The notes under the pieces: model-generated
The model's input: only the letters and a program-made list of their open reading frames with translations
Told to the model about the DNA's origin: nothing
The model's database searches: none
Shown here: positions 1 through 27,676 of the stretch, in pieces
Layout: each line of letters begins with the position of its first letter
How positions within the stretch are numbered: the first letter of the stretch is position 1
Translations under genes and position numbers: made by a program
Origin: a virus
Reading direction: 5' to 3' (one strand)
Length of the DNA stretch: 39,909 bases
UHGV virus genome: UHGV-1354231

Positions 1-145
1 AGAGACGGGCTGGTGGTCTGAATGCGGATCTGAAAACGTTTAAACCGGTATTTCGTGTCACAGATGAATATTCCCGTGCCGCGCTGGACAGTTTTTTATC
101 CCGTCATGCCGGGATTCGTGCTTTTTTTGTGGCGTCCGCCAAAAC
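1..145 (+). repeat. Direct repeat: partial copy of the minor tail protein M gene, near-identical to 11845-11988 (one extra T in the T-run at 122-128)
   Basis: Base-by-base comparison of window start with 11845-11988; identity ends after gccaaaac (145/146 vs 11988/11989). Confidence 0.9.
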
Positions 146-542
146 CGCTAAAAAGGATGAAAAAGGTCTTCCTAAAATTCCGCAGCATTTAGGGGCTCAG
201 GGGAAGTACTGGTTCAGGCGAATGGCGGAAGAGCTGAATGCGGAAGGGATCATTTCTCAGCTTGATGCGCGTGCGCTCGAGTTGCTGGTGGAAGCCTACA
301 CCGAATATCGGCATCACTGCGAAACACTCGATGTTGAGGGGTATACCTACCGCACGGAAACGCAGAGCGGTGATGTACTGATTAAGGCGCACCCCGCGGC
401 GGCAATGAAAGCGGATGCCTGGAAGCGGATCCGGGCAATGCTTGCAGAGTTTGGTATGTCACCGGCAAGCCGGGCTAAAGTAAATATCGCCGGACCGGAT
501 GATGTTGATCCGCTGGCGGAGCTTTTAAAAGCGAGAGACTGA
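129..542 (+). CDS. Phage terminase small subunit (P27-like); reading frame is open upstream to window start and in frame with the gpM fragment
   Basis: Translation matches P27-type small terminase as recalled; GTG start at 129 lacks an obvious SD; stop overlaps TerL start. Confidence 0.75.
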   Translation: MASAKTAKKDEKGLPKIPQHLGAQGKYWFRRMAEELNAEGIISQLDARALELLVEAYTEYRHHCETLDVEGYTYRTETQSGDVLIKAHPAAAMKADAWKRIRAMLAEFGMSPASRAKVNIAGPDDVDPLAELLKARD

Positions 543-2299
543 TGGCAAAAGTGGCTGACGGGATCCGCTACGCCGAACGTGTTGTTGCAGGAGAAATTGT
601 TGCTGGCGAATTTGTCCGCCTGGCCTGCCAGCGTTTTCTTGATGATCTGAAGTACGGCGAAGAGCGGGGGATTTATTTCAGTGAACCCCGTGCGCAGCAC
701 ATCCTGAATTTCTACAAATTTGTGCCTCATGTAAAAGGGGCACTGGCAGGCCAGCCCATTGAGTTGATGGACTGGCATGTATTTATCCTCATTAATATTT
801 TTGGTTTTGTCATTCCGCTGGTCAATGAAGAAACCGGGGAAGTTGTCATGCGCAGCGATGGCAGCGGACGTCCGGTGATGGTGCGCCGGTTCCGGACGGC
901 GTACAACGAAGTCGCCCGTAAAAACGCAAAATCAACCCTGTCATCGGGTATCGGCCTGTATATGACGGGGGCAGATAGTGAAGGCGGAGCTGAGGTGTAT
1001 TCAGCCGCAACCACGCGTGACCAGGCCAGAATCGTGTTTGAAGACGCCAAAAATATGGTCAGAAAAGCCCGGTCGACACTCGGGCGGTTGTTTGATTTCA
1101 ACAAGCTGGCGATTTACCAGGAGCAGAGCGCATCAAAATTTGAACCGCTTTCCTCGGATGCAAACAACCTGGACGGTCTGAACATCCACTGCGCCATTAT
1201 TGATGAGCTGCATGCACATAAAACCCGCGACGTGTGGGACGTTCTGGAAACGGCAACCGGTGCCCGTCTGCAGTCCCTGTTATTTGGTATCACCACGGCT
1301 GGCTTTAACAAGGAAGGGATTTGTTACGAGCAGCGTGATTACGCCATCAAGGTATTGCGAGGCTATAACAGCGACGTGGAGGGCGCTGTAAAAGACGACT
1401 CTTACTTTGCGATCATTTACACGCTTGATGAGGGAGATGATCCGTTTGATGAAACGGTCTGGCAGAAAGCGAATCCTGGCCTGGGCATCTGTAAACGCTG
1501 GGATGATCTGCGTCGTCTGGCGAAAAAAGCGAAGGAGCAGGTCTCTGCGCGGGTGAATTTTTTTACCAAACACATGAATGTGTGGGTCACTGCCGAATCT
1601 GCCTGGATGGATATGATTAAGTGGGAGAAGTGCGAATACATTGCTCCACAACATGAGCTGAAAACATATCCCATGTGGGTCGGCGTCGACCTTGCTCATA
1701 AGATTGATATCTGTGCGGCGGCAAAACTCTGGCGAACCGATAACGGACATGTTCATGCTGATTTTAAATTCTGGCTTCCGGAAGGACGGCTGGAACGATG
1801 CTCGCGGCAGCAGGCAGAACTTTACCGGAAGTGGGCGGAGATGGATAAGCTCATCCTGACGGATGGTGATGTTATCGATCATGCTCAGATAAAAAGTGAC
1901 TTACTGGAATGGATTGGCGGTGAAAACCTCAGGGAACTGGGATTTGACCCGTGGAGCGCAATGCAGTTCAGTCTGGCACTGGCTGAAGAAGGGATACCGC
2001 TGGTGGAGGTTCCGCAGACGGTCCGCAATCTGTCAGAGGCCATGAAGGAAACGGAATCACTGGTTTATGCCGGGCGTTTCCATCACAGCAATCATCCGGT
2101 CATGAACTGGATGATGTCTAACGTTACTGTAAAACCGGACAAAAACGACAACATCTTCCCGAATAAATCCACGCCGGAAGCCAAAATCGACGGCCCTGTT
2201 GCGCTTTTTACAGCCATGAGCCGCTTTCTGGTAAATGGCGGGGGCGTGAATGACTTTCTGTCCACGCTTGATCCTGATGAGGACCTGTTAATTCTGTGA
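542..2299 (+). CDS. Phage terminase large subunit (HK97-like, Terminase_1 type)
   Basis: 585-aa ORF directly after TerS; ATPase and nuclease-type motifs; synteny with portal. Confidence 0.9.
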   Translation: MAKVADGIRYAERVVAGEIVAGEFVRLACQRFLDDLKYGEERGIYFSEPRAQHILNFYKFVPHVKGALAGQPIELMDWHVFILINIFGFVIPLVNEETGEVVMRSDGSGRPVMVRRFRTAYNEVARKNAKSTLSSGIGLYMTGADSEGGAEVYSAATTRDQARIVFEDAKNMVRKARSTLGRLFDFNKLAIYQEQSASKFEPLSSDANNLDGLNIHCAIIDELHAHKTRDVWDVLETATGARLQSLLFGITTAGFNKEGICYEQRDYAIKVLRGYNSDVEGAVKDDSYFAIIYTLDEGDDPFDETVWQKANPGLGICKRWDDLRRLAKKAKEQVSARVNFFTKHMNVWVTAESAWMDMIKWEKCEYIAPQHELKTYPMWVGVDLAHKIDICAAAKLWRTDNGHVHADFKFWLPEGRLERCSRQQAELYRKWAEMDKLILTDGDVIDHAQIKSDLLEWIGGENLRELGFDPWSAMQFSLALAEEGIPLVEVPQTVRNLSEAMKETESLVYAGRFHHSNHPVMNWMMSNVTVKPDKNDNIFPNKSTPEAKIDGPVALFTAMSRFLVNGGGVNDFLSTLDPDEDLLIL

Positions 2300-2446
2300 A
2301 ACAGCTTATTACTGATATGACCGGGCTGATCGGTTTCGGTTTGCTCACTGCTGGCGTTTATCTGTATGCAGGTCTGCCAGCGTCTCTGATGCTGTCGGGC
2401 TGTTTGTTGCTGCTTTATGCACTGGTGGTGTCCATGAGGAGAAAAC

Positions 2447-3673
2447 ATGCTTCTTGATGCTCTGTTTCGCAGTGAGCCTCTGGAAAATCCCTCGGTTCCG
2501 GTAACCGGAGAGGCCGCTGAGACGGATAATATTTTTGCCCGGGATGTGTATGTCAGTCCGGAAACATCCATGAAGCTGGCTGCTGTCTATGCCTGTATTT
2601 ATGTTATTTCATCCAGTGTGGCTCAGATGCCCCTGCATGTGATGCGAAAAACGAATGAGCATGTTCAGCCGGCACGCGATCATCCGTTGTTCTGGCTCGT
2701 TCATGATGAACCTAATGCCTGGCAGACCAGCTATAAGTGGCGGGAACTGAAGCAGCGTCATGTGCTGGGGTGGGGCAATGGTTATACGTGGGTAAAACGT
2801 AATCGTCGTGGAGAGGTTACCAGCCTTGAATGCTGTATGCCATGGGAAACCACGTTACTTAACACCGGTGGGCGTCATACTTACGGGGTGTATAACGAAG
2901 AGGGTGCATTTGCGGTAAGTCCGGACGACATGATCCATATCAGGGCGCTGGGAAACAATCAGAAAATGGGACTGAGCCCGATCATGCAGCATGCTGAAAC
3001 CATTGGTATGGGAATGAGTGGCCAGCAGTATACCAGCGCCTTTTTTAACGGTAATGCCCGTCCTGCCGGTATTATTTCTGTGAAAAATGAACTGAACGAA
3101 CAAAGCTGGGGCAGGCTTAAAAATATGTGGCAGCGGGCGGTGACAGCGCTTCGCAGCCAGGAAAATAAAACCATGTTGCTGCCTGCGCAACTGGATTACC
3201 GCGCTCTGACAGTTTCTCCGGTGGATGCTCAGATCATTGATATGACCAAGCTGAACCGGTCGATGATTGCCGGGATTTTTAATGTCCCGGCGCACATGAT
3301 TAATGACCTGGAAAAAGCCACATTTTCGAATATTACGCAGCAGGCGATTCAGTTTGTTCGCTACACGATGATGCCCTGGGTTGCGAACTGGGAGCAGGAG
3401 CTTAACCGTCGCCTGTTTACCCGTACAGAACGGGCTGCCGGGTATTACGTTCGTTTCAACCTCACGGGGTTGCTCCGTGGGACCCCACAGGAGCGTGCGC
3501 AGTTCTATCACTTTGCCATTACAGATGGCTGGATGAGTCGGAATGAAGCCAGGGCATTTGAGGATATGAACCCGGTTGACGGTCTGGATGAAATGCTGGT
3601 CAGCGTAAATGCAGCAAATCCGTTGAATAACTTTAAAGATACGAAAGGCAAAGAGGAAAAGAACGATGAATGA
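2447..3673 (+). CDS. Phage portal protein (HK97 family)
   Basis: 408-aa ORF after TerL; GAGGAG SD at 2437-2442; portal-like sequence and synteny. Confidence 0.85.
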   Translation: MLLDALFRSEPLENPSVPVTGEAAETDNIFARDVYVSPETSMKLAAVYACIYVISSSVAQMPLHVMRKTNEHVQPARDHPLFWLVHDEPNAWQTSYKWRELKQRHVLGWGNGYTWVKRNRRGEVTSLECCMPWETTLLNTGGRHTYGVYNEEGAFAVSPDDMIHIRALGNNQKMGLSPIMQHAETIGMGMSGQQYTSAFFNGNARPAGIISVKNELNEQSWGRLKNMWQRAVTALRSQENKTMLLPAQLDYRALTVSPVDAQIIDMTKLNRSMIAGIFNVPAHMINDLEKATFSNITQQAIQFVRYTMMPWVANWEQELNRRLFTRTERAAGYYVRFNLTGLLRGTPQERAQFYHFAITDGWMSRNEARAFEDMNPVDGLDEMLVSVNAANPLNNFKDTKGKEEKNDE

Positions 3674-4265
3674 CCGTGAAACGCGCTGTTACAGCGGGGA
3701 GGTGCGGGCGGAACAATATGATAATGCCCCGACCCACATTCTGGGGTATGGCTCGGTATTTAACAGTCGTTCAGAACCTCTGTGGGGATTTCGTGAAATC
3801 ATCAAGCCGGGGGCTTTTGATGATGTACTGAATGATGATGTACGTGGCTTGTTTAATCATGATCCTAATTTCATTCTCGGACGAAGTTCTGCCGGCACGT
3901 TGTCATTGTCGGTGGATGAACGCGGTTTACGTTATGACATTGTTGCACCGGATACTCCGACTATTTGTGACCTGGTGCTGTCTCCAATGTTGCGTGGTGA
4001 CATTAATCAGTCCTCGTTCGCGTTTCGTGTCGCCCGTGACGGAGAGAGCTGGTATGAAGACGACGAGGGGATTGTTATCCGGGAAATCACGCGCATTTCT
4101 CGTCTGTATGACGTCAGCCCGGTGACATATCCGGCCTATCAGGACGCAGACTCTGGTGTCCGCTCAATGAAAGCCTGGCAGGAAGCGCGGGCGAGTGGTG
4201 CGCTGAAGAAAGCTGTTAACGAACGAATGGCGCGTGAGCGTCTTTTGACCCTTCTTAATGCATAA
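3666..4265 (+). CDS. Prohead maturation protease (HK97 family)
   Basis: 199-aa ORF overlapping portal end; position between portal and major capsid. Confidence 0.8.
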   Translation: MNDRETRCYSGEVRAEQYDNAPTHILGYGSVFNSRSEPLWGFREIIKPGAFDDVLNDDVRGLFNHDPNFILGRSSAGTLSLSVDERGLRYDIVAPDTPTICDLVLSPMLRGDINQSSFAFRVARDGESWYEDDEGIVIREITRISRLYDVSPVTYPAYQDADSGVRSMKAWQEARASGALKKAVNERMARERLLTLLNA

Positions 4266-4279
4266 GGATACTACTGACG

Positions 4280-5497
4280 ATGAAACTTCATGAGATGAAG
4301 CAAAAACGAAACACCATTGCAAAGGATATGCGTGCACTGCATGAAAAAATTGGTGATAACGCATGGACTGATGAGCAACGGGCAGAGTGGAACAGGGCGA
4401 AAGCTGAGCTGGATGCGCTGGATGAGCAAATCGCCCGTGAAGAAGAGTTGCGCCGTCAGGATCAGGCATATGTGGATGAGTCCGGGCCGGAAGAGCGCCA
4501 GAATAATGAGGCGGAGAACGGGAAAAAGGCGGTGGAAGAGAAGCGCGCTGCGGCATTTAACCGTTTTCTGCGTGCCGGATTTGCAGAACTGAATGCTGAA
4601 GAGCGTAATCTGATGCGTGAACTGCGGGCTCAGAGTGTAACAACGGATTCTCAGGGCGGATATACGGTGCCCACGCAGATGCGTAACAAAATCATTGACA
4701 CCATGAAGGCTTATGGCGGGATTGCCAGTGTGGCGCAACTTCTGACCACATCAACCGGGCAGGATATCACCTGGTCAACGTCTGATGGCACGACTGAAGA
4801 GGGCGAACTGCTGGCGGAAAATACAGCCGCAACGGAACAGGATGTGACGTTCGGGACCGCTATTCTGGGGGCTAAAAAGCTGTCATCAAAAATAATTCGT
4901 GTGTCCAATGAGCTGCTCCAGGACAGTGGGGTGGATATTGAATCTTATCTGGCAAACCGTATTGCCCAGCGTATTGGTCGTGGAGAGGCAAAATATCTGG
5001 TTCAGGGGACCGGAACGGGATCACCGTTACAGCCAAAAGGGCTGGCAGCGTCGGTGACGGGAACCATCCAGACTGCAGCCTCTGCCGCTTTCACCTGGAA
5101 AGAAATGAATGCCCTGAAACATGCCATTGATCCGGCATATCGTGGTGGGCCGAAATACCGCTGGGCATTCAATGATGCCACATTGCAGACTATTGAAGAG
5201 ATGGAGGATGGGCAGAAACGCCCGTTATGGCTGCCGGATATTGCAGGCGGTACGCCGGCTACTGTGCTGGGGATCCCTTATGTTATTGATCAGGCTATTG
5301 ACGGGATTGGTACCGGAAAAAAATTCATTTTCCTGGGGGATTTCAACCGCTTTATCATTCGCCGCGTTACTTATATGGAACTGAAACGTCTGGTTGAGCG
5401 TTATGCTGAGTTTGATCAGGTGGCATTTCTGGCTTTCCATCGTTTTGACTGTGTGCTGGAAGATGTGGCAGCCATCAAGGCGCTCACTGGCAAATAA
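4280..5497 (+). CDS. Major capsid protein (HK97 fold)
   Basis: 405-aa ORF following protease; strong terminator immediately downstream. Confidence 0.85.
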   Translation: MKLHEMKQKRNTIAKDMRALHEKIGDNAWTDEQRAEWNRAKAELDALDEQIAREEELRRQDQAYVDESGPEERQNNEAENGKKAVEEKRAAAFNRFLRAGFAELNAEERNLMRELRAQSVTTDSQGGYTVPTQMRNKIIDTMKAYGGIASVAQLLTTSTGQDITWSTSDGTTEEGELLAENTAATEQDVTFGTAILGAKKLSSKIIRVSNELLQDSGVDIESYLANRIAQRIGRGEAKYLVQGTGTGSPLQPKGLAASVTGTIQTAASAAFTWKEMNALKHAIDPAYRGGPKYRWAFNDATLQTIEEMEDGQKRPLWLPDIAGGTPATVLGIPYVIDQAIDGIGTGKKFIFLGDFNRFIIRRVTYMELKRLVERYAEFDQVAFLAFHRFDCVLEDVAAIKALTGK

Positions 5498-5518
5498 CCA
5501 CTCGTTGTTCAGTTACAG

Positions 5519-5541
5519 ACCGCGCCGACGCGGTTTTTTTA
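5519..5541 (+). terminator. Rho-independent terminator after the major capsid gene
   Basis: ACCGCG-ccga-CGCGGT stem-loop followed by a 7-T run; a second GC hairpin (5543-5562) abuts the next SD. Confidence 0.6.
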
Positions 5542-5573
5542 TGCCCGCACAGTGTTGCGGGCAGGAGTTTCTG

Positions 5574-5891
5574 ATGGCAGCAATAGTGGAAAAACTCAGG
5601 GCGCAGTGCCGTATTGATACAGATGATGCAACTGATGATGAGTTACTGATGCTGTATTTCCGGGCTGCCTGCCGCAAGGCAGAAAATTTTATCAACCGTA
5701 AGCTTTATGAGGAGACGGTGCCGGAAGGTGATCCTGAAGGGGTGCTTATAGCTGATGATGTTTTGCTGGCGCTCATGTTGCTGGTCGGGCACTGGTACGA
5801 AAACCGGGAAAATTCCTCAGATGTCAGCAAGGCACCAGTCCCGTTTGGTTTTTCTTCTCTGCTGGAGCCTTATCGTTTTATTCCTTTGTAG
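5574..5891 (+). CDS. Head-tail connector protein (gp6-like); start trimmed from ORF 5394 to the ATG at 5574
   Basis: In-frame ATG at 5574 with GCAGGAG SD after the terminator; small acidic protein in the expected position. Confidence 0.65.
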   Translation: MAAIVEKLRAQCRIDTDDATDDELLMLYFRAACRKAENFINRKLYEETVPEGDPEGVLIADDVLLALMLLVGHWYENRENSSDVSKAPVPFGFSSLLEPYRFIPL

Positions 5892-5899
5892 GAGGAGAC

Positions 5900-6238
5900 A
5901 TGCAGGCGGGCAGATTACGTGATCGCGTAATTATTCTGAATGTCACCACCGCCCGCTCTCCGTCAGGGCATCCGGTGGAGACGGTGACGGAGGGAGCTAC
6001 CGTATGGGCAGAAGTTAAGGGTATCAGCGGGAGGGAGATAATCTCAGGCGGAGCAGAAACCGCTCAGGCTACGGTCAGAGTCTGGATGAGATTCCGGCGC
6101 GATGTGACAGCGACTTCACGTCTGAAAGTGCTGACCGGTGCATTTAAAGGGGCCATTCTGGGTATAGAAGGTCCACCAATACCGGATGCACGCGCTACCC
6201 GGCTTGAAATACTCTGCAGCCTGAAGGGGAATGTGTGA
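5900..6238 (+). CDS. Head closure / head-tail adaptor protein
   Basis: 112-aa ORF; synteny in HK97-like head modules. Confidence 0.6.
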   Translation: MQAGRLRDRVIILNVTTARSPSGHPVETVTEGATVWAEVKGISGREIISGGAETAQATVRVWMRFRRDVTATSRLKVLTGAFKGAILGIEGPPIPDARATRLEILCSLKGNV

Positions 6239-6684
6239 TGGATTTCAGTCTTGATTTTTCCGGCCTGGCGGATATTGCACGGGATCTGGAGACGCTCAGC
6301 AGGGCAGAAAACAATAAGGTTCTGCGCGATGCCACCCGTGCCGGTGCTGAAGTTATGCGGGATGCAGTTGTTGAACGTGCGCCGGAGCGAACCGGGAAAC
6401 TGAAGAAAAATGTGGTTGTTCTCACTCAGCGTTCAAAGCGTCGGGGGGAAATTATCTCGGGTGTCCACATTCGCGGACGGAACCTGCGAACCGGAAACAG
6501 TGATAACAGCATGAAAGCCAGCGATCCCCGAAATGCATTTTACTGGCGCTTTGTGGAGCTGGGAACGATAAACATGCCCGCGCATCCATTCATTCGCCCG
6601 GCTTTCGATACGACAGAGGAACTGGCAGCACGGATTGCCATACAGCGAATGAATCAGGCTATTGATGAGGTCTTAAGTAAATGA
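6235..6684 (+). CDS. HK97 gp10-family tail component
   Basis: 149-aa ORF overlapping its neighbours by 4 nt; synteny. Confidence 0.6.
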   Translation: MMDFSLDFSGLADIARDLETLSRAENNKVLRDATRAGAEVMRDAVVERAPERTGKLKKNVVVLTQRSKRRGEIISGVHIRGRNLRTGNSDNSMKASDPRNAFYWRFVELGTINMPAHPFIRPAFDTTEELAARIAIQRMNQAIDEVLSK

Positions 6685-7025
6685 GAGAGGCCACACTGTA
6701 TTCCCTGTTGTCTCAGCTGGCCGGAGGACAGGTTTATCCTTATGTGGTCCCACTGACGGAGGGAAAGCCTGCGGTATCTCCGCCGTGGCTGGTGTTTTCT
6801 GTGGTGTCTGACACGGCATCTGATGTGCTTGATGGGCAGGCTGAATCCAGAATTACCGTGCAGATCGATGTCTGGGCGACAGTACCTGATGACGCAGATA
6901 ATATTCGTGAGCAGGCGCTTGATGCGGTAAGAAAACTGGCACCCTCCGTTATTTCTAAAACGCAGGGTTATGATCCTGACTCCCGTCTGAGCAGAGCCAC
7001 GCTTGAATTTCAGGTAATAGCCTGA
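6681..7025 (+). CDS. Tail completion / neck protein (DUF3168-like)
   Basis: 114-aa ORF immediately upstream of the major tail gene; translationally coupled. Confidence 0.5.
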   Translation: MREATLYSLLSQLAGGQVYPYVVPLTEGKPAVSPPWLVFSVVSDTASDVLDGQAESRITVQIDVWATVPDDADNIREQALDAVRKLAPSVISKTQGYDPDSRLSRATLEFQVIA

Positions 7026-7045
7026 GGTCATTAATGATTTTACCC

Positions 7046-7070
7046 ACCCGCCGCTGGCGGGTTTTTTTAT
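7046..7070 (+). terminator. Rho-independent terminator upstream of the major tail gene
   Basis: ACCCGCC-gct-GGCGGGT hairpin followed by a 7-T run. Confidence 0.6.
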
Positions 7071-7085
7071 TTTCAGGAGACGAGT

Positions 7086-7790
7086 ATGTCCTCTAATTTT
7101 GAGCGTTCGCAACTGACGAAAATTATGATTTCGTCTGCACCGGTAACAGCAGAAACCCTGGATTCTGCCAGCTATCTTGGCCTGAGCTGTACAATCAAAG
7201 AGGTGCAGTTTACCGCAGGACAAAAGCAGGATATTGATGTCACCACGCTGTGTTCTGTTGAGCAGGAAAATATTAACGGTCTTGGTGCCGCGTCAGAGAT
7301 TTCCATGTCAGGCAACTTTTATCTGAATGCTGCCCAGAACGCGTTGCGCAGTGCCTATGACAATGACACCACGTATGGCTTTAAAGTTATTTTTCCGTCA
7401 GGCAACGGATTTACCTTTATGGCAGAGGTGCGTCAGCATACCTGGTCTGCAGGAACCAATGGTGTTGTGGCTGCAACGTTTTCCTTGCGCCTGAAAGGTA
7501 AACCTGTGCTGACGACAGAGCCGCTGAAAGTGAAGGCCGATTTAAAAAGCACGCTGCGGGTTGCTTCCGGAGCGAAACTTGAAATGGCGGTTGAGGCTGC
7601 GGGTGGTGTGCCGCCTTATTCTTATGTCTGGAAGAAAGGTGGTTCTCCTGTTTCCGGACAGACGGCGGCAACGTTCAGTAAGGCATCGGCAGTATCCGGT
7701 GATGCGGGTGCATATACCTGCGAGATTTCTGATTCAGCAAGCCCGGTTAACAAAGTGACCTCCACTTCCTGCACTGTAACCGTCAGTTAA
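7086..7790 (+). CDS. Major tail protein with C-terminal Ig-like domain
   Basis: 234-aa ORF with GGAGA SD; Ig-like C-terminal third as in lambda gpV-type proteins. Confidence 0.8.
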   Translation: MSSNFERSQLTKIMISSAPVTAETLDSASYLGLSCTIKEVQFTAGQKQDIDVTTLCSVEQENINGLGAASEISMSGNFYLNAAQNALRSAYDNDTTYGFKVIFPSGNGFTFMAEVRQHTWSAGTNGVVAATFSLRLKGKPVLTTEPLKVKADLKSTLRVASGAKLEMAVEAAGGVPPYSYVWKKGGSPVSGQTAATFSKASAVSGDAGAYTCEISDSASPVNKVTSTSCTVTVS

Positions 7791-8176
7791 TGAGGATGGA
7801 TGTGATGACTAAAAATATCCGTAATCTGGCACTGGCAACGATGTCGGGGTTTCGCCATAAAACCGTTGATGTGCCTGAATGGGAGGGAGCAACGGTTGTG
7901 TTACGGGAACCTTCTGCAGAAGCCTGGTTGCGCTGGCAGGAGATCGTTAAAGCAAAAGATGATGAGACACCGTTATCCGTTGCGGAGCGCGCCCGCCGAA
8001 ATCTGGAGGCAGATGTTGAACTGTTCATTGATGTTCTGTGTGATACCGGACTGCAACCCGTATTTTCAGAGGATGATCGTGAACAGGTGATTGCCGTGTA
8101 TGGCCCGGTGCATGCGCGGCTTCTTCGGCAGTCTCTGGAACTGATCAGTGATGCCGGCGAGGTTAAAAAAAAGTAG
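7790..8176 (+). CDS. Tail assembly chaperone (lambda gpG analogue)
   Basis: 128-aa ORF between major tail and tape measure genes; ends in the slippery tract. Confidence 0.8.
   Translation: MRMDVMTKNIRNLALATMSGFRHKTVDVPEWEGATVVLREPSAEAWLRWQEIVKAKDDETPLSVAERARRNLEADVELFIDVLCDTGLQPVFSEDDREQVIAVYGPVHARLLRQSLELISDAGEVKKK
8167..8173 (+). other. Programmed -1 ribosomal frameshift slippery heptamer A_AAA_AAG (G to G-T fusion)
   Basis: AAAAAAG sits at the last codons of the G-like ORF; the -1 frame is open through 8478. Confidence 0.7.
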
Positions 8177-8187
8177 CGCTTCCGGGG

Positions 8188-8478
8188 ATGCGTTTTCTGA
8201 TGATGCTGGCGCTCAGGATGGGGCGCACATTGTCAGAGTTACGCCGGGAAATGTCCGCATCAGAAATCATGATGTGGGCAGAATTTGACAGGTTCAGCCC
8301 GCTGGGGGACGAACGGGCTGATATCCGGGCTGCCCAGATTGTTTCAGCTGTTTACGGTGCGCAGGGGGTCAAAGTGCCACTGAATGATGCGCTTCTTCAG
8401 TGGGAGAAGGAGCAGACAGAAGGCGTATCAGATCCATTTGCCGGACTGGAAAACGCGCTTTTAATAGTGTCTCAGTGA
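8188..8478 (+). CDS. Tail assembly protein T-like frame, probably made only as a G-T frameshift fusion
   Basis: 96-aa ORF in the -1 frame relative to G; no independent SD; conserved G/T arrangement. Confidence 0.7.
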   Translation: MRFLMMLALRMGRTLSELRREMSASEIMMWAEFDRFSPLGDERADIRAAQIVSAVYGAQGVKVPLNDALLQWEKEQTEGVSDPFAGLENALLIVSQ

Positions 8479-8487
8479 GTCAACATA

Positions 8488-8508
8488 ACCGCTTCGGCGG
8501 TTTTTTTT
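8488..8508 (+). terminator. Hairpin + T-run after the G/T genes
   Basis: ACCGC-ttcg-GCGGT followed by an 8-T run. Confidence 0.55.
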
Positions 8509-8518
8509 CGTCCGGAGA

Positions 8519-11500
8519 ATGAGTGTGGCGACATTACGTGAACTGATTATTAAAATCTCGGCAAATTCCCGGTCATTCCAGTCAGAGATCTCCCGGGCTT
8601 CGCGTATGGGGCAGGATTACTACCGTACCATGCAGAACGGAGGCCGGCAGTCCGCTGCTGCATCCCGTGAAATGCGGCGTGCACTGGCAGAAGTGACGGA
8701 TCAGATAAATACAGCTAAATCTTCGGCACTGAATATGGCGGGGGCATTTGCCGGGGCTTTTGCTACCGGTCATCTTATTTCTTTCGCCGATGAGTGGAAT
8801 TCAGTAAATGCCCGTCTGAAGCAGGCCTCACAGTCCAGTGATGATTTTCAGGCATCACAGCGTGAATTAATGGCGATCAGCCAGAGAACGGGGACGGCGT
8901 TTTCTGATAACGCCAGCCTTTTTGCCCGTTCTGCAGCTTCCATGCGGGAGTATGGTTACAGTTCTGAGGAGGTACTGAAAGTCACCGAGGCGATCTCCAC
9001 GGGCCTGAAATTATCCGGTGCCAGTACAGCAGAAGCCAGTTCGGTGATCACGCAGTTCAGTCAGGCACTGGCGCAGGGAGTGCTGCGCGGTGAAGAGTTT
9101 AACTCGGTGAATGAGAACGGCGATCGTGTTATTCGTGCGCTGGCTGCGGGAGTGGGGGTTGCCCGTAAGGATCTGAAGGCCATGGCGGATAACGGAAAGT
9201 TGACCGCCGATAAGGTTGTTCCTGCACTGATTAGTCAGCTTGGGGCATTACGTGATGAATATGCGGCAATGCCTGATACGGTTTCATCCTCTGCAACCAA
9301 AGTTGAAAACGCCTTTATGGCCTGGGTTGGTGGTGCGAACGAGGCAAGCGGAGTGACGAAGACGCTCTCCGGTGTGCTGAATGGTATTGCAGGCAATATT
9401 GACACTGTGGCAACCGCTGCCGGTGCTCTGGTTGCCGTCGGGGTAGCCCGATATTTTGGCAATATGGCGTCTTCTGCTGGATCTGCAACTGCCGGATTAA
9501 TTACTGCAGCCAGAAACGAAGTGGCTCTTGCGGAAGCGCAGCTCCGGGGGACACAGATAGCAACAGCCAGGGCGCGTGCGGCGGTTTATCGTGCGCAACA
9601 GGCGGTTGTTGCTGCTCGCGGTACCGAAAGGCAGGCAGCCGCAGAAGCGAAACTGGCTGCTGCCCAGGCATCACTTACCCGTAATATTGCGGCCAGAACA
9701 GCAGCACAGACAACGCTGAATACTGTCACGTCAGTGGGAAGTCGTCTGTTAAGTGGAGCACTGGGACTGGTTGGTGGGGTGCCGGGGCTTGTCATGCTGG
9801 GGGCCGCGGCCTGGTACACGATGTATCAGAATCAGGAGCAGGCCAGAGAATCTGCACGCCAGTATGCCGCAAAAATCGACGAAATTCGCCAGAAAACGTC
9901 GGCAATGTCGCTTCCTGAAGCGTCAGATAATGAGGAAAAGACGCGGCAGGCACTTGATGAGCAAAACAGGTTAATTGACGAGCAGAAAAGTAAGATTAAA
10001 TCCTTACAGGAAAAAATTGCTGGCTATCAGTATGTGCTGGCAAACCCGGGCTGGACAACCGATAACGGTTTTATGATTAACCACATGACGTCGGTAAAAA
10101 CAGTCACAGAAGGGCTTGCAGAAGCAACAAATCAACTGGCAGTTGAACAGTCCCGTCTCACACAAATGCAGGGCAAAGCGCAATCCATTCAGGATGTGCT
10201 TGCCGGGCTGGAGGAGCGGCGGGTTGCGTTGATCCGTCAACAGGCGGCGGAACAAAACAAAGCGTATCAGTCCCTGTTGATCATGAATGGGCAGCATACC
10301 GAGTTTAATCGCCTTCTTGGGCTTGGTAATGAATTACTTCAGCAGCGACAGGGGCTGGTGAATGTACCGTTACGGCTACCACAGGCAACCCTGGATGATA
10401 AACAGCAGACCGCACTGAATAACAGCAAGCGCGAACTGGCTCTGTCCCGCCTTAAGGGGGAAGCGCGTGAGCGTGCCCGACTGGGCTATGCTGCGGATGA
10501 TCTCGGCTTTGTGGGAGAGGCGTATCAGACAGCCAGACAGAATTATATCAATAACTCACTGGATGCCTGGCGAAATAACCAGGCAAATAAACCCAAAGCG
10601 CATAAAAAGACCGAAGCGGAAAAAACAGAAGATATTTATAAACGGCTGATTAAACAGCAAAAAGAACAGATAGCACTGGCAGGGCAGAATACTGAACTGG
10701 CTAAGATGAAATATCAGGTCAGTCAGGGCGAATTATCAACCCTGTCAGAAGCGCAGAAAAAAACGCTTTTGCAGAATGCAGCACTCATCGACCAGAAAAA
10801 GATTCGTGAGCAGCTTGCTGCGTATGAAAGCAGCCTGGCGGACAGTAATGCCAGTACCCGGGCGTCTAACGACGCGCAGTTACTGGGATATGGTGAAGGC
10901 TCACGGATGCGTGAACGACTCCAGGAAATGTGGAGTATCCGGCATGAGTTTGAGCAGAAAAATAACGAGCTGCTGAGACAGTATCAGGCCGGAGAAATTG
11001 AAGAAGCCCTGTGGAAACAGGAGAAAGAACTGAATAAAAAATATCTGGAAGAGCGTCTCAGCGATCAGCAGGATTATTATGCAAAGGCCGATGCTTTACG
11101 TAATAACTGGAATGCAGGACTCCAGGAGGGGCTGACCAACTGGGCAGACAGTGCCACCGATTATGCTTCGCAGGCGGCAGATGCTGTCGTTTCCACTATG
11201 GACGGGCTGGTATCAAATATTTCCGATGCGCTGGCCGGAAATGTTGTGGACTGGAGAAACTGGGGGAGTTCAATTCTCCAGGAAGTTTCAAAAATTCTGA
11301 TGAATGCGGCCATTGTTAACGGACTGAAGTCACTCTCCGGTGCCGGAGGGTGGCTTGGTACGGTCGGCGGATGGATTTCGGGGGCGGTGGCAAACGCAAA
11401 AGGTGGTGTTTACACATCGGCAAATCTGAGTGCTTACAGTAACACTATTGTGGATACACCGACGTATTTTGCTTTTGCGAAAGGTGCCGGGCTGATGGGC

Positions 11501-11752
11501 GAGGCCGGGCCTGAAGCTATCATGCCACTGACACGGGCAGCGGACGGCTCTCTTGGGGTCAGAGCCATTGGCAATGTGAATAGTGGCGGGGGGGTTGTTT
11601 ATTCTCCCGTGTATCACATCAGCATTCAGAATCAAGGGAGCAATGGCGAGATAGATGCGCGCTCAGCCAGGGGACTGGTGGATCTGATCGACAGCAGGGT
11701 TGTGTCAATTATGCAGTCATCGCGTCGGGATGGAGGATTGTACAGTGCCTGA
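8519..11752 (+). CDS. Tail tape measure protein
   Basis: 1077-aa ORF, Ala/Gln-rich coiled-coil character, position after G/T. Confidence 0.9.
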   Translation: MSVATLRELIIKISANSRSFQSEISRASRMGQDYYRTMQNGGRQSAAASREMRRALAEVTDQINTAKSSALNMAGAFAGAFATGHLISFADEWNSVNARLKQASQSSDDFQASQRELMAISQRTGTAFSDNASLFARSAASMREYGYSSEEVLKVTEAISTGLKLSGASTAEASSVITQFSQALAQGVLRGEEFNSVNENGDRVIRALAAGVGVARKDLKAMADNGKLTADKVVPALISQLGALRDEYAAMPDTVSSSATKVENAFMAWVGGANEASGVTKTLSGVLNGIAGNIDTVATAAGALVAVGVARYFGNMASSAGSATAGLITAARNEVALAEAQLRGTQIATARARAAVYRAQQAVVAARGTERQAAAEAKLAAAQASLTRNIAARTAAQTTLNTVTSVGSRLLSGALGLVGGVPGLVMLGAAAWYTMYQNQEQARESARQYAAKIDEIRQKTSAMSLPEASDNEEKTRQALDEQNRLIDEQKSKIKSLQEKIAGYQYVLANPGWTTDNGFMINHMTSVKTVTEGLAEATNQLAVEQSRLTQMQGKAQSIQDVLAGLEERRVALIRQQAAEQNKAYQSLLIMNGQHTEFNRLLGLGNELLQQRQGLVNVPLRLPQATLDDKQQTALNNSKRELALSRLKGEARERARLGYAADDLGFVGEAYQTARQNYINNSLDAWRNNQANKPKAHKKTEAEKTEDIYKRLIKQQKEQIALAGQNTELAKMKYQVSQGELSTLSEAQKKTLLQNAALIDQKKIREQLAAYESSLADSNASTRASNDAQLLGYGEGSRMRERLQEMWSIRHEFEQKNNELLRQYQAGEIEEALWKQEKELNKKYLEERLSDQQDYYAKADALRNNWNAGLQEGLTNWADSATDYASQAADAVVSTMDGLVSNISDALAGNVVDWRNWGSSILQEVSKILMNAAIVNGLKSLSGAGGWLGTVGGWISGAVANAKGGVYTSANLSAYSNTIVDTPTYFAFAKGAGLMGEAGPEAIMPLTRAADGSLGVRAIGNVNSGGGVVYSPVYHISIQNQGSNGEIDARSARGLVDLIDSRVVSIMQSSRRDGGLYSA

Positions 11753-12086
11753 GCCTGAAGTTTTTAACTGGATCCCCCGTGAGGGGATGGAGACGACACG
11801 AAAGCCATCAGTTATTACGGTAAAGTTTGGTGACGGATATGAACAGAGACGGGCTGGTGGTCTGAATGCGGATCTGAAAACGTTTAAACCGGTATTTCGT
11901 GTCACAGATGAATATTCCCGTGCCGCGCTGGACAGTTTTTTATCCCGTCATGCCGGGATTCGTGCTTTTTTGTGGCGTCCGCCAAAACACAACAGGACTG
12001 TCCGGGTTGTCTGCAGGGAGTGGAGCATTTCGGATAATGCCATGTATACCGATTTTAACTGTACCTTTGAAGAGGTCACTCACTGA
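11745..12086 (+). CDS. Minor tail protein M
   Basis: GTG at 11745 with GGAGGA SD; sequence resembles lambda gpM as recalled. Confidence 0.8.
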   Translation: MPEPEVFNWIPREGMETTRKPSVITVKFGDGYEQRRAGGLNADLKTFKPVFRVTDEYSRAALDSFLSRHAGIRAFLWRPPKHNRTVRVVCREWSISDNAMYTDFNCTFEEVTH

Positions 12087-12784
12087 TGCAGGATATACAG
12101 CAGGAAACACTCAATGAGTGCACTAAAACGGAGCAATCCGCGCTGATCGTGCTCTGGGAAATTGATCTGACAGAGGTCGGCGGAGATCGTTATTTCTTCT
12201 GTAATGAGCAGAACGAAAAAGGTGAACCAGTCACCTGGCAGCGGCGGCAGTATCAGGCCTATCCCATTCAGGGAAGTGGATTTGAGATGAACGGCAAAGG
12301 AGCCAGTGCAAGGCCAACGCTTAAAGTCTCTAATCTGTACGGCATGGTCACCGGGATGGCGGAAGACCTGCAGAGTCTGGTCGGCGGAACGGTGGTCAGG
12401 CGTAAGGTTTACGCCCGTTTTCTGGATGCGGTGAACTTCGTCAACGGAAACAGTGACGCCGACCCGGAGCAGGAGGTGATCAGCCGCTGGCGCATCGAGC
12501 AGTGCAGCGAACTGAGTGCGGTCAGTGCTTCTTTTGTACTGTCCACGCCGACGGAAACGGATGGTGCGGTTTTTCCGGGGCGCATCATGCTGGCCAACAC
12601 CTGTACCTGGACCTATCGCGGTGATGAGTGCGGTTATAGCGGTCCGGCTGTCGCGGATGAATATGACCAGCCGACGTCCGATATCACGAAAGATAAATGC
12701 AGCAAATGCCTGAGTGGCTGTAAGTTTCGCAATAACGTCGGCAACTTTGGCGGCTACCTTTCCATCAACAAACTTTCGCAGTAA
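12086..12784 (+). CDS. L: Minor tail protein L
   Basis: 232-aa ORF, same length and position as lambda gpL; Cys-rich C-terminus. Confidence 0.85.
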   Translation: MQDIQQETLNECTKTEQSALIVLWEIDLTEVGGDRYFFCNEQNEKGEPVTWQRRQYQAYPIQGSGFEMNGKGASARPTLKVSNLYGMVTGMAEDLQSLVGGTVVRRKVYARFLDAVNFVNGNSDADPEQEVISRWRIEQCSELSAVSASFVLSTPTETDGAVFPGRIMLANTCTWTYRGDECGYSGPAVADEYDQPTSDITKDKCSKCLSGCKFRNNVGNFGGYLSINKLSQ

Positions 12785-18259: not shown

Positions 18260-20332
18260 GTGGATATGGCAGCAGTAAAAATCTCAGGTGTGCTGAAAGA
18301 TGGTGCGGGAAAACCAATACAGAACTGCACTATTCAACTGAAGGCAAAGCGTAACAGCACCACGGTACTGGTGAACACGGTGGCCTCTGAAAATCCGGAT
18401 GAAGCCGGGCGTTACAGCATGGATGTTGAGTATGGCCAGTACAGCGTCACCCTGCTGGTTGAAGGTTTTCCACCTTCACATGCCGGGACCATTACCGTCT
18501 ATGAAGGTTCCAGACCAGGTACGCTGAATGATTTTCTCGGTGCCATGACGGAGGATGATGTTCGTCCGGAGGCACTGCGCCGTTTTGAGCTGATGGTGAA
18601 TGAAGTGGCACGTCATGCCGGAGCGTCATCACAGAGTGCAGCGGCGGCAAAGAAATCCGAAACGGCAGCGACATCATCGAAGAACGCGGCGAAAACCTCA
18701 GAAACGAATGCAGCTAACAGCGCACAGGCGGCAGCGGCCTCGCAGACTGCATCGGCAAACTCCGCGACAGCAGCCAAAAAATCAGAAACCAGCGCGAAAA
18801 ATAGCGAGACAGCCACAAAGGCCAGCGAAAAAAACGCAAAATCCAGCCAGACGGCAGCGAAAACCAGTGAGACGAATGCCAAAGACAGTGAAGCCAACGC
18901 AAAGGTGAGCGAAACAGCGGCGGCGAACTCGGCGAAAGCATCGGCAGCAAGCCAGACGGCAGCAAAAGCAAGTGAAGATGCTGCCAGAGAATACGCAAAC
19001 CAGACAGCAGAGCCGTACAGATATGTTTTACAGCCGCTGCCGGATGTGTGGATACCCTTTAATGATTCGCTGGATATGATTACGGGCTATTCTCCGGGTT
19101 ATAAAAAAGTGAAGATTGGTGATAATGTGGTTCAGGTTGCCAGTGATAAACAGGTTAATTTCAGTCGCGCATCAACGGCAACATATATCAACAAATCTGG
19201 CGAACTGAAAACGGCGGAAATTAATGAGCCACGATTTGAGTGTGATGGCCTGCTTATTGAGGGGCAAAGAACGAACTTCTTCCAGAACAGTACAGACCCT
19301 TCGAAGTGGAATAAGTCAACTTCACTGGACGTTACAGAAACAGGCACAGATAGTTTCGGGTTTAATTATGGCCGGTTTGTCGTACAGGATTCGATTGTTG
19401 GTACAAGTAAAGCGCATACCATTATCGGGCTGTATTCGAGTACCGGAGGGGTTGATACTTCAGGGGACGAAAAGCATGTAACTATATCCTGTCGGGTAAA
19501 AAGTGAAGTTGATAATATCGCCGTTCGTATTTTATTTGAACATTATGATGGGGAGGTAAGGACATCAATAGGAGCAGCAAACCTGAACCTTACCACCCGC
19601 ATAATTAGCAAGACAGGTCAGACAAGCCGTGTTACAGCAAGGTCTGTTAAGGATGATGCAACTGGCTGGATATTTTTTGAGGCTACATTAAAAGCAGATA
19701 CAACAGAAAATACGGTTGGTGGTTTTGTCCAGTATTCTCCGGATACAGGGCAGATGGTTGCATCAGGGGATTATCTCGATGTAACCACTCCACAGATTGA
19801 GGCTGGTACAGGCGCATCATCTTTTATTGTTACGGGGACGGCACCGGTAACGCGGGCAAGCGATATGGTTACAGTTCCGATTAAGAATAATCTTTATAAT
19901 CTTCCTTTTACGGTTCTTTGTGAGGTACATAAGAACTGGTATAAAACGCCAAATGCAGCACCGCGTGTTTTTGACACATACCGGCATCAGGCAGATGCGG
20001 GGATCGTAATGGGGTTTGGTTCATCAGGTGGGTACGACGGTTTTCCGTATTGCGATATAGGTGGTTCAGACCGACGAATAAATGAAAATGCCGGGCTGGA
20101 AAAAATGCTTATTGGTATGCGGGTAAAGTCCGAACGGTCCACATGTGTAGTCAGTAACGGTAAGTTAAGCAGCGAAACTAAAACCAAATGGGAATATATC
20201 CGGAGTACAGCAACCATTCGCATTGGTGGACAAACTACAGCAGGATTACGCCATTTATTTGGGCATGTGAGGAATTTTCGTCTCTGGCATAAAGAGCTAA
20301 CAGATGCGCAGCTTGGGGAGGTTGTGGAGTGA
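18260..20332 (+). CDS. stf: Side tail fiber protein (lambda Stf-like N-terminus, divergent C-terminal domain)
   Basis: N-terminus MAAVKISGVLKDG...GFPPSHAGTITVYEG resembles lambda Stf as recalled; Ala/Ser/Thr-rich repeat region; 690 aa. Confidence 0.8.
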   Translation: MDMAAVKISGVLKDGAGKPIQNCTIQLKAKRNSTTVLVNTVASENPDEAGRYSMDVEYGQYSVTLLVEGFPPSHAGTITVYEGSRPGTLNDFLGAMTEDDVRPEALRRFELMVNEVARHAGASSQSAAAAKKSETAATSSKNAAKTSETNAANSAQAAAASQTASANSATAAKKSETSAKNSETATKASEKNAKSSQTAAKTSETNAKDSEANAKVSETAAANSAKASAASQTAAKASEDAAREYANQTAEPYRYVLQPLPDVWIPFNDSLDMITGYSPGYKKVKIGDNVVQVASDKQVNFSRASTATYINKSGELKTAEINEPRFECDGLLIEGQRTNFFQNSTDPSKWNKSTSLDVTETGTDSFGFNYGRFVVQDSIVGTSKAHTIIGLYSSTGGVDTSGDEKHVTISCRVKSEVDNIAVRILFEHYDGEVRTSIGAANLNLTTRIISKTGQTSRVTARSVKDDATGWIFFEATLKADTTENTVGGFVQYSPDTGQMVASGDYLDVTTPQIEAGTGASSFIVTGTAPVTRASDMVTVPIKNNLYNLPFTVLCEVHKNWYKTPNAAPRVFDTYRHQADAGIVMGFGSSGGYDGFPYCDIGGSDRRINENAGLEKMLIGMRVKSERSTCVVSNGKLSSETKTKWEYIRSTATIRIGGQTTAGLRHLFGHVRNFRLWHKELTDAQLGEVVE

Positions 20333-20616: not shown

Positions 20617-20904
20617 ATGGATATCACGTCGATACTTCATGCGCTTTGTGCCGTAGCGGTGCAGGTACTGGCTGGTCTTTTTACCGGAAACTGGGCTTAC
20701 GGGGCGATAGCCGGTTGTACGTTCTTCATTGCTCGTGAACATACCCAGGCAGAATATCGCTGGATTGAAATGTTCGGGCATGGCAAGCGAATGAATATGC
20801 CGTGGTGGGGCGGTTTTGATCCGCGCGCGTGGGATGTAGCAAGCCTGATGGATTTTGCTGTGCCGGTGGTGGCGTGTCTGCTGATCTGGATGTTGATCCG
20901 TTAA
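20617..20904 (+). CDS. Hypothetical small membrane protein (two predicted TM segments)
   Basis: 95-aa ORF with AAGGA SD; hydrophobic N- and C-terminal stretches; no family recognised. Confidence 0.45.
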   Translation: MDITSILHALCAVAVQVLAGLFTGNWAYGAIAGCTFFIAREHTQAEYRWIEMFGHGKRMNMPWWGGFDPRAWDVASLMDFAVPVVACLLIWMLIR

Positions 20905-21144
20905 ATATAAAAGCCGCAGTAACTTGCCATGATAGGATACTGCGGCTGGCTGGTTAACTTTCGATAGTGCGAGTATTGAATGATTTCCAGCCGTTACTGA
21001 TTTTATATAACGGCAGTGGAATTATTCAACACACAGGCAAAACACAGGCAAAACGGAATAAGCTGAGAAAAAAAGCGTGCTTTCCCAATCTGGGGCAAAT
21101 CACGTCTGAATGACACCTGAAAACAGGTGGTGGACTCAAGAAGG

Positions 21145-21155
21145 CTTGGAATATT
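21145..21155 (+). repeat. Putative Int arm-type site (CTTGGAATATT), left arm
   Basis: Exact copy of the motif repeated at 21374 and 21387. Confidence 0.55.
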
Positions 21156-21171
21156 CTTCTTTAATGTTATG

Positions 21172-21184
21172 TAATTCATTGATT
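21172..21184 (-). promoter_or_regulatory. IHF-like site (AATCAATGAATTA fits WATCAANNNNTTR)
   Basis: Consensus match on the minus strand between the two left-arm repeats. Confidence 0.35.
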
Positions 21185-21206
21185 TTTCGTGTACGATTTT
21201 AAGACA

Positions 21207-21217
21207 TTTATTCCAAG
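21207..21217 (-). repeat. Putative Int arm-type site, inverted copy (CTTGGAATAAA)
   Basis: 9 of 11 match to the arm motif in inverse orientation. Confidence 0.45.
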
Positions 21218-21256
21218 AAAAATTTTTAACTCTTTGATTTTTCTACTCTGTATCAT

Positions 21257-21318
21257 CGGTCTCGAAAACCGGAGTGGGGGCAACTCCACCGGGGGTTCAA
21301 ATCCCCCTCTCTCCGCCA
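21257..21318 (+). other. 3' ~62 nt of a tRNA-Ser(CGA) gene (anticodon stem to CCA); att core, not a complete tRNA
   Basis: CGGTCTCGAAAACCGGAG...GGGGGTTCAAATCCCCCTCTCTCCGCCA matches the enterobacterial serU-type tRNA 3' portion as recalled; no 5' acceptor/D-arm upstream. Confidence 0.75.
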
Positions 21319-21363
21319 AAATTCAATCACTTACACATCATTAAGTCAGTGACAAAAATCACA

Positions 21364-21397
21364 CTTGGAATTACTTGGAATATTTTCTTGGAATATT
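21364..21397 (+). repeat. Three tandem arm-type sites (CTTGGAAT(T/A)TT) overlapping the int 3' end
   Basis: Copies at 21364-21371, 21374-21384, 21387-21397. Confidence 0.6.
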
Positions 21398-22396
21398 TTC
21401 AGGTAACGGGACATCAAGTGTTGGTGAAACTTTAACCTTCCTGTCATAGATTAGCACTTGCCCTTCGGTTTTGTGACCAGAGAAAAGTTGCTTATCCCGG
21501 CTGCTTCCTTCATAGTCTGAAATTCCTTTCGCCTTCAGATCATGAAAGGTGAAGTCGGTTAAAATACCTGAAATTTTGCCTGCGCGATTTCTTGCATCTA
21601 CCCACATTTCGTTAAAGCCTTTGTACATATATCGGTTGCCGTATTGATTGCTGATCACATAGGCAGATTTTGGCAACTGTTTTGCTTTTTCGATCGCTGC
21701 CTGTAATCGTGGACTCCATGCTTTTATCTGTTTTTTTCCGGTTTTCCCTTGCTGGATGAATATCCCGTCGTTTCCAATCTGTTCCCATTTCAGCGATAAC
21801 ACATCGGAAACCCTCGCTGCACACAGATAGGCAATTTCCATTGCGATAAAAACAGGAAGAGGTGCAACGCTTAATACTGCCTGGTATTCTTTGTCGGTTA
21901 CATATCGTTCGCGGTTTTTGGCCTTGAATTTACTTACACCTGCACATGGGTTAGCCTTCACGTACCCTCGCTCATACCCCCAACTGTAAACACGGGACAT
22001 ACTGCTTTTTTCATGGTTGGCTTGCGTTTTACTCTGCTCCCCTCTTTTGTCCATGTATCGACGGATGTGTTCTGGTTTTATGGAATCCGCTGGTACCTTA
22101 CCGAATACGGCAAGCAACTTTTTTTGATGTTGCAGATAATCTTTTTGTGTTCTTGGACTAAGGTCACTGTAATAGGCGCTGGCGAGGAATTTTTCCCACA
22201 AGCGACCGAATGTCATTGCACGATCGCGATTATTTACAGTTTCCTCATACTTTTTCCATAAAGCAGCTAAACCATCCTTGATGGCGGTTAGTGTGACAGA
22301 TTCTCTGGATGTTGGTTTCCATACATAACTATATTTATTTGGGTATACATTTGGAGGTAATTTTTCGTGTTCAGGATTTTTCCTTCGTCTTCCCAT
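21371..22396 (-). CDS. int: Tyrosine integrase (lambda Int family)
   Basis: 341 aa; N-terminal MGRRR arm-binding-type start; FSGHK and HDLKAKG-like catalytic-region motifs; adjacent to att. Confidence 0.9.
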   Translation of the reverse strand: MGRRRKNPEHEKLPPNVYPNKYSYVWKPTSRESVTLTAIKDGLAALWKKYEETVNNRDRAMTFGRLWEKFLASAYYSDLSPRTQKDYLQHQKKLLAVFGKVPADSIKPEHIRRYMDKRGEQSKTQANHEKSSMSRVYSWGYERGYVKANPCAGVSKFKAKNRERYVTDKEYQAVLSVAPLPVFIAMEIAYLCAARVSDVLSLKWEQIGNDGIFIQQGKTGKKQIKAWSPRLQAAIEKAKQLPKSAYVISNQYGNRYMYKGFNEMWVDARNRAGKISGILTDFTFHDLKAKGISDYEGSSRDKQLFSGHKTEGQVLIYDRKVKVSPTLDVPLPENIPRKYSK

Positions 22397-22599
22397 CAGA
22401 TCGCACCAAAATTCGGCTCTACCTCGCGTGGTGGTAAAGTTTTATTGCAGGTAAATAGATCCCGGCTGACAATCGGTTTGCCACTACGATTGGTATAGAA
22501 CGGAAGCCCGTTTTCCATTAACCATTTTCGCTGGTGGCTTGCATATTTGCAGCCCGTTAATATTAGCAATTCATCTTCGGTTAAAAATAAGCTGCTCAT
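22396..22599 (-). CDS. xis: Excisionase-like protein
   Basis: 67-aa ORF overlapping the int start by 1 nt; typical int-xis arrangement. Confidence 0.6.
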   Translation of the reverse strand: MSSLFLTEDELLILTGCKYASHQRKWLMENGLPFYTNRSGKPIVSRDLFTCNKTLPPREVEPNFGAI

Positions 22600-22657
22600 A
22601 GCTATATCTCATAACCGCCGCTAACTATATACGGTTAGCGGCAATTAGGGTTGAACA

Positions 22658-25084: not shown

Positions 25085-25177
25085 TATTGGTAAACCTCAT
25101 CACAGATTTAAGGGTGAACAAATCTCTGCCATTGCTGACATATAAGAATGAAACTGGATATTTATTACGGTGCTGTT

Positions 25178-25369
25178 TTAAAATCCTGCCGGGATTTCGT
25201 TATTATCCTGGTGAATAACTTTATCGACCGGATAACAGTTGCCTGGAATTTTCTGTTCGGTTGCTGCTGCCATACATTCCTGCATTGTTCTGTGAACACT
25301 GACTGCAATATCAACTGGCTCTCCGGAAACAAGAAAAACCGTCAGAATAAGTGCAAATACTGGATTCAT
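25178..25369 (-). CDS. Small secreted / lipoprotein-like protein (63 aa)
   Basis: Internal ATG at 25369 with AAGGA SD; N-terminal hydrophobic signal-like segment; two Cys. Confidence 0.4.
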   Translation of the reverse strand: MNPVFALILTVFLVSGEPVDIAVSVHRTMQECMAAATEQKIPGNCYPVDKVIHQDNNEIPAGF

Positions 25370-26340: not shown

Positions 26341-26369
26341 ACTGATTCCTCGCGGTGCTGCTTCGCTTA

Positions 26370-26498: not shown

Positions 26499-26499
26499 A

Positions 26500-27663: not shown

Positions 27664-27676
27664 TTAGGAGAGTGAA

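Follow-up and report, generated by a model that had tools for sequence, protein, structure and literature searches.

The largest k-mer length of the SPAdes assembler is 127. Repeats of 127 bp have been documented at the ends of phage contigs assembled with this program (PMC8104045, PMC9009655). We analyzed a DNA stretch of 39,909 nucleotides (UHGV virus genome UHGV-1354231, at its full length subsequently referred to as the window) that resembles these cases in that an exact repeat of 127 nt lies at the start of the sequence and ends where the graph paths diverge. It differs from them in that the second copy is internal (11845–11971), as in a loop or branch of the graph rather than in a circular genome, and in that the use of SPAdes is a presumption here. 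A second group of comparable cases are chimeras formed by template switching and products of microhomology-mediated illegitimate recombination. Like these, the window has a single breakpoint, 5 nt of microhomology and an indel nearby. Its sequence would fit a join made in vitro as well as one made in vivo.

The genes that meet at this breakpoint are the minor tail protein M gene (gpM) and a P27-family small terminase gene (terS). The latter belongs with the terS genes of HK97-like E. coli prophages that adjoin an HNH endonuclease gene: residues 28–160 are essentially identical, and the large terminase gene (terL) is located next to it. In contrast to these prophages, the window carries a tail gene fragment in place of the HNH/cos region. 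Tandem or poly-lysogenic prophage arrays at tRNA-Ser (mtfA/yodB), for example in E. coli M15, show late genes, att site and integrase in direct succession, and the same succession is found in the window. However, the known arrays at tRNA-Ser keep an intact terS, and none of them contains a junction of gpM with terS.

We propose, with a probability of roughly 0.6, that positions 1–145 of the window represent a rare chimeric junction at the free end of a contig that was assembled from short reads by way of a de Bruijn graph, and not a normal structure of the phage. The features on which this proposal is built are collected in Table 1.

Table 1. Position and nature of the features discussed in the text
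Position	Strand	Feature	Basis or remark
1–127	+	Exact duplicate of a segment within the minor tail protein M gene	Sequence comparison
122–128	+	Run of 7 T; the seventh T (128) is the first mismatch to the intact copy	
129–145	+	Final 17 nt of tail-gene-derived sequence, containing a GTG at 129	Equals 11972–11988
141–145	+	AAAAC microhomology, the breakpoint	Three-way comparison
141–542	+	5'-truncated P27-family small terminase gene, codons 28–160 of 160	Comparison with relatives, Pfam
542–2299	+	Large terminase gene, intact	Identical protein in many E. coli prophages
11745–12086	+	Intact minor tail protein M gene, donor of the duplicated segment	Pfam
21257–21333	.	att region, phage-type copy of the 3' part of tRNA-Ser	
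30681–31167	+	ea22 segment common to HK97-like and phiV10-like phages	Exact over 30849–31167
33280–35677	+	Five private single-base indels (33280, 35341, 35379, 35594, 35677)	Against the nearest relative

A tail gene segment at the start of the window

The 127 nt at the very start of the window are repeated without any difference at 11845–11971. Base 128 is an added T, which gives a run of seven T instead of the six found at 11966–11971. The 17 nt that follow (GTGGCGTCCGCCAAAAC) again agree with the internal copy; from 146 and 11989 onward, respectively, the copies no longer match. In total, 144 nt are shared between the window start and the gpM gene, an extent that would be far beyond what chance alone could account for. 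A sequence-only reading of the window had described positions 1–145 as a duplicate of 11845–11988 that differs by a single T, and our direct comparison agrees with it.

The intact gpM homologue was recognized by Pfam as Phage_min_tail (PF05939) with 110 bits. The breakpoint lies after nt 244 of this gene (codon 82). The fragment at 3–128 matches only profile positions 32–73, and its score of 22.4 bits stays below the gathering cut-off of 39. We also noticed a terminator-like hairpin (ATCCCG...CGGGAT) with a T run inside the gpM coding sequence (98–128 and 11942–11971), about 30 nt ahead of the breakpoint. Its presence in a coding sequence is probably due to chance; polymerase pausing or template switching could be favored by such a hairpin.

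The breakpoint itself coincides with the pentanucleotide AAAAC, which the gpM gene (11984–11988) has in common with the native terS, where it is formed by the end of an A7 run plus C. In a three-way comparison, the tail gene continues from ...CGCCAAAAC into ACAAC and the native terS from ...CACAAAAAAAC into CGCT, while the window continues from ...CGCCAAAAC into CGCT. Among 2 million simulated random joins within the window genome, a microhomology of at least 5 nt was rare (p = 0.0058), which argues for a homology-primed join rather than a blunt ligation or an in silico concatenation. The join has a single breakpoint and brings together, in direct orientation, two loci that lie far apart in one genome. 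With one breakpoint, 5 nt of microhomology and the loss of terS codons 1–27, the anatomy of the junction is compatible with an illegitimate join. The sequence-only reading had left a choice between illegitimate recombination and an assembly chimera; the former is retained as a description of the anatomy, and the evidence as a whole favors an assembly chimera or a rare molecule.

According to our proposal, one or a few fragments would have joined the gpM gene (up to 11988) with terS (from codon 28) at AAAAC. This may have happened by template switching or by microhomology-primed extension, either during library preparation or amplification or in a rare molecule, and the assembler would have retained the weak path that resulted. 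The contig would then begin at the 127-mer that is common with the real tail gene, depart from it at the erroneous seventh T and, past the junction, merge into the true terminase-to-tail sequence. Positions 1–127 would accordingly represent the 127-mer vertex at which the path through the de Bruijn graph branches. The exact prefix common to both copies measures 127 nt and is ended by base 128, as expected of a contig-end overlap in SPAdes at k=127. The window is presumably a whole SPAdes-type contig, and the junction is presumably covered by few reads.

The truncated small terminase and its relatives

In the relatives of the window, the native terS encodes 160 aa and starts with an ATG located 81 nt upstream of window position 141. 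The first 27 codons (MSGPPKTPPRLHLIRGNPSKRPVNDHK), among them the conserved RGNPSKRP stretch, are absent from the window. The gene therein has no start codon of its own and does not represent a full-length P27-family small terminase. The Terminase_4 domain (PF05119), which corresponds to native residues 49–147, is nevertheless complete: the fused ORF reached 88.8 bits (cut-off 24.7) and covered profile positions 2–97 of 98. No relative of the window terS was found in the PDB. The stop codon of terS and the start codon of terL overlap by 1 nt, which is the usual arrangement.

With the additional T in place, no stop codon interrupts frame 3 between the start of the window and the one at 540–542, as had been noticed from the sequence before. 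The fused frame reads ...SRHAGIRAF-FVASAK-TAKKDEKG... and comprises 179 aa, whereas an ORF started at the GTG at 129 comprises 137 aa. It is the T at 128 that brings the gpM frame into register with terS; without the seventh T, the two are out of register. The GTG is situated inside the tail-gene-derived sequence and is not preceded by a purine-rich stretch. Since the relatives align only from window position 141 and their ATG lies 81 nt upstream of it, this GTG is not a native start codon. A promoter scan of positions 1–700 did not find any candidate. The sequence-only reading had held that terS has no Shine-Dalgarno sequence ahead of this GTG and appears to lack a native N-terminus. The comparison with the 160-aa relatives bears the latter point out, as the intact genes do have a longer N-terminus.

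A megablast search showed that about 970 of 5,426 complete E. coli genomes and 11 phage records carry the terminase region. All of these alignments begin at window position 141, and none begins earlier. The order in the relatives is HNH endonuclease gene, a G+C-rich spacer of 148 nt, terS (160 aa) and terL, and the many E. coli prophages with an identical large terminase all likewise have HNH and then the 160-aa terS upstream of it. Over the 12,060 nt of window positions 141–12200, three near-identical prophages with the normal HNH-terS-terL order show a single mismatch and no gap.

The junction of gpM with terS had no match in these 5,426 genomes or in 50,697 phage records, and the exact junction 31-mer had none in viral, genome and metagenome contig collections. 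The 7-T allele was likewise absent from the viral, genome and metagenome collections, and none of the 129 other gpM copies in the retrieved loci had it, while the 6-T allele, which served as positive control for this search, was present in 108 viral contigs. Exact protein look-ups did not return a match for the fused ORF (179 aa), the GTG-started ORF (137 aa, in two versions), the frameshifted phiV10-like terS (145 aa, see below) or the predicted partial Ea22 product. A programmed translational frameshift site at the T run was considered and rejected, as seven T occur only in the window and the 129 gpM copies and 108 viral contigs have six T in a single frame.

Position 141 could also be a physical end of packaged DNA that was produced by cleavage inside terS, with the 3' end of the bottom strand (...GGTTTT-3') annealing to the AAAAC of gpM and being extended in vitro. 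Both the native sequence of the window and a contig from an independent assembly (see below) begin exactly there, the microhomology sits exactly at that end, and the circularly permuted, attP-type layout of the window suggests phage rather than chromosomal DNA. However, in phages with a pair of HNH and terS genes, cos is located in the intergenic region between the two, and the G+C-rich spacer of 148 nt is the place where it would be expected. The cohesive end of HK97 lies 49 nt upstream of its terS, although the HK97 terS is not homologous and can be no more than a loose guide. We know of no cut inside the conserved coding N-terminus of terS in the HNH-terS group of phages, and we give this explanation very little credence.

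An independent assembly of the region

Most of the window could be compared with contigs from Logan, which were assembled at k=31. Contig ERR975243_13 (20,632 nt) is 100.000% identical over its full length to window positions 141–20772, and contig ERR975243_5 (9,407 nt) is 100.000% identical over its full length to positions 21304–30710. Judging from this agreement, ERR975243 very probably represents the same isolate as the window. The ends of the Logan contigs fall at window positions 141, 20772, 21304 and 30710, the last of which is in keeping with branching due to an ea22 allele of a co-resident phiV10-like phage that differs at 30680.

ERR975243_13 starts exactly at 141 and is unbroken through 11845–11988. 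A junction present in full copy number would force a branch at 11971/11988. Since the contig is continuous there, the junction can be at most a minority path, an argument that holds only if ERR975243 is indeed the same isolate. The result bears directly on the idea that the junction is a fixed variant of the host chromosome, either an 11,844-bp tandem duplication from terS to gpM or a deletion of about 28.7 kb reaching from gpM of one tandem prophage copy to terS of the next. A second head module and a partial tail module would then lie upstream of the window, and a +1 T slippage would have created a gpM-TerS fusion ORF. Tandem prophages of this HK97-like family, with late genes followed by the integrase, do occur in complete genomes such as that of E. 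coli M15. The polarity of the junction is as expected of a tandem duplication, and the fusion is in frame and leaves the Terminase_4 domain intact. However, a fixed duplication or deletion should produce a branch at both breakpoints in a short-k assembly, and ERR975243_13 runs through the gpM breakpoint without interruption. In addition, two independent rare events would have to have occurred 18 nt apart in a prophage that is 99.99% identical to its relatives, the junction was found in no collection searched, and it would have to be a coincidence that precisely 127 nt separate the window start from the first difference. A fixed variant thus appears highly improbable. The second tail module that the sequence-only reading had envisaged upstream is not supported either, though one may conceivably lie beyond the window start.

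The start of a k=31 contig exactly at 141 implies that the ERR975243 reads contain a second predecessor that differs at base 140. Junction k-mers are therefore probably present in at least 2 ERR975243 reads, and if so, the junction is not a creation of the assembler. The branch was retained on the terS side of the ERR975243 assembly, and there is none at the gpM side. Natural terS alleles were considered as the cause of the break and rejected: a non-A allele at base 140 was seen in 0 viral contigs, compared with at least 120 that have A. A common T/C polymorphism at 170 would put a k=31 break at 140 and not at 141. Both the apparent presence of at least 2 junction reads and the lack of a natural non-A allele at 140 count against our preferred explanation.

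The start of ERR975243_13 exactly at 141 and the lack of a natural non-A allele at 140 would fit a junction that is real but rare. Microhomology-mediated template switching during induction could have joined gpM of one HK97-like copy to terS of another copy or of the same concatemer. A minority of the molecules would then contain an 11,844-bp repeat unit or the junction of a mini-circle, and the extra T would have arisen by slippage in the same error-prone synthesis. The non-random microhomology of 5 nt is in line with this, and the extra T is only 18 nt away from the breakpoint, which fits a single mutational event. Furthermore, the attP-type join described below shows that the sequenced DNA came from excised or replicating phage or from a tandem prophage. 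Such molecules would not propagate, however: a mini-circle would be devoid of cos and origin, and a phage with the duplication would measure about 52 kb, which exceeds the capacity of the capsid. The gpM gene is unbroken in the independent assembly, and in sequence an in vitro chimera would look just the same. Taken together, we regard rare molecules of this kind as unlikely.

Private indels point to errors in the unconfirmed parts

Outside the part confirmed by Logan, the window contains no private substitutions and six private single-base indels, namely the T at 128 and the five listed in Table 1. All six are located outside the 30 kb that are covered by the Logan contigs, and these 30 kb are without any difference. 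The five distal indels sit in the last 9 kb, where the window shows zero substitutions relative to a 99.9% identical phiV10-like relative, and they were found in none of 13 relatives. The phiV10-like terS is frameshifted as a consequence of the indels (145 aa, as opposed to 197 aa), and one indel falls where the relatives carry a Gp49-like gene. A tRNA-Arg gene (TCT; 35567–35644, minus strand) between the podovirus terL and portal genes is 78 nt long instead of the 77 nt in the relative, the extra base being the private insertion at 35594.

The five distal indels are probably sequencing or assembly errors, and the pattern of the six is that of errors and not that of a natural mutation spectrum. 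This pattern makes the seventh T suspect as well, and the extra T at 128 is probably an error. As the fusion is in frame only by virtue of this suspect T, its in-frame state carries little weight; chance would produce it in 1 of 3 cases. Several of the private indels do not have the form of homopolymer errors. For Illumina data this is unusual, and it speaks against our preferred explanation. We also considered whether the assembly might be poor throughout. This was rejected, as there is not a single gap in 141–12200 relative to the three near-identical prophages and 30 kb are 100% identical to independent contigs.

The window combines two phages

The late genes of an HK97-like siphovirus, terS through tail fibers, are found at positions 141–21333. 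The second part (21257–31167) belongs to the same HK97-like prophage type and contains the integrase, exonuclease and repressor genes together with the replication region. The remainder (30651–39909) comes from a phiV10/epsilon15-like podovirus, with Ea22/DUF551, a Terminase_2 small terminase, terL, portal and a GP7 capsid gene that is truncated where the window ends.

In E. coli 190693, the late region and the integrase-to-replication region belong to one prophage, which occupies tRNA-Ser between mtfA and yodB and reads int...early...lysis...terS...tail. In close relatives, the tail genes are followed by attR and yodB/zinT on one side, and int by tRNA-Ser and mtfA on the other. In the window, within 20904–21371, the end of the tail fiber region is joined directly to the integrase gene via the phage-type copy of the 3' part of tRNA-Ser, which constitutes an attP-type or a tandem-prophage junction; there is no complete tRNA at 21257–21333. 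Because of this tail-att-integrase join, the window cannot be a simple integrated prophage.

Two further observations concern the genes around this site. The integrase gene (21371–22396, minus strand) is intact and encodes 341 aa, while its counterpart in the related prophages of E. coli 190693 and M15 carries a frameshift according to the annotation. In the N-terminal region of the tail fiber, a degenerate repeat with a 21/42-nt period (18677–18990) encodes a stretch rich in Ala, Ser, Thr, Lys and Glu (A-K-x-S-E-T-like).

The switch from the HK97-like to the phiV10-like phage takes place inside an exact ea22 repeat of 319 nt (30849–31167). Among the complete E. coli genomes and phage records searched, none has the two sides of this join next to each other, and the switch may have arisen naturally as a mosaic or result from a mis-join through the repeat. 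Typical phiV10-like prophages are located at guaA and have an integrase and an early region of their own. The same part of the window contains a 60-nt direct repeat (30173–30232 and 30858–30917, 85% identical) that spans a ribosome-binding site and the initial codons of two ea22-like frames, the second copy being the start of the Ea22/DUF551 gene (30869). Repeats of this type are likely substrates for module exchange. As a whole, the window is a composite assembly path that leads through an HK97-like siphovirus, circular or in tandem, and a phiV10-like podovirus. We count this composite make-up, with its attP-type join and its switch between phages, in favor of the proposed contig-end chimera.

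Implications

The duplicated gpM segment with its fusion to a truncated terS is present in the sequence, yet it is most likely not a stable feature of a phage genome. That it might be a genuine in vivo product, be it an 11.8-kb duplication or a tandem-prophage deletion expressing a gpM/terS fusion, or the end of packaged DNA in terS codon 28, seems distinctly doubtful on the available sequences. The main value of our analysis lies in a warning about quality, namely that the window should not be taken for the genome of a single phage. If it were annotated as such, several artefacts would spread, namely a fusion of gpM with the terminase, a terminase without N-terminus, and a second terminase and a tRNA with frameshifts. 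Should the junction prove real, it would represent an ordinary microhomology-mediated rearrangement in a prophage.
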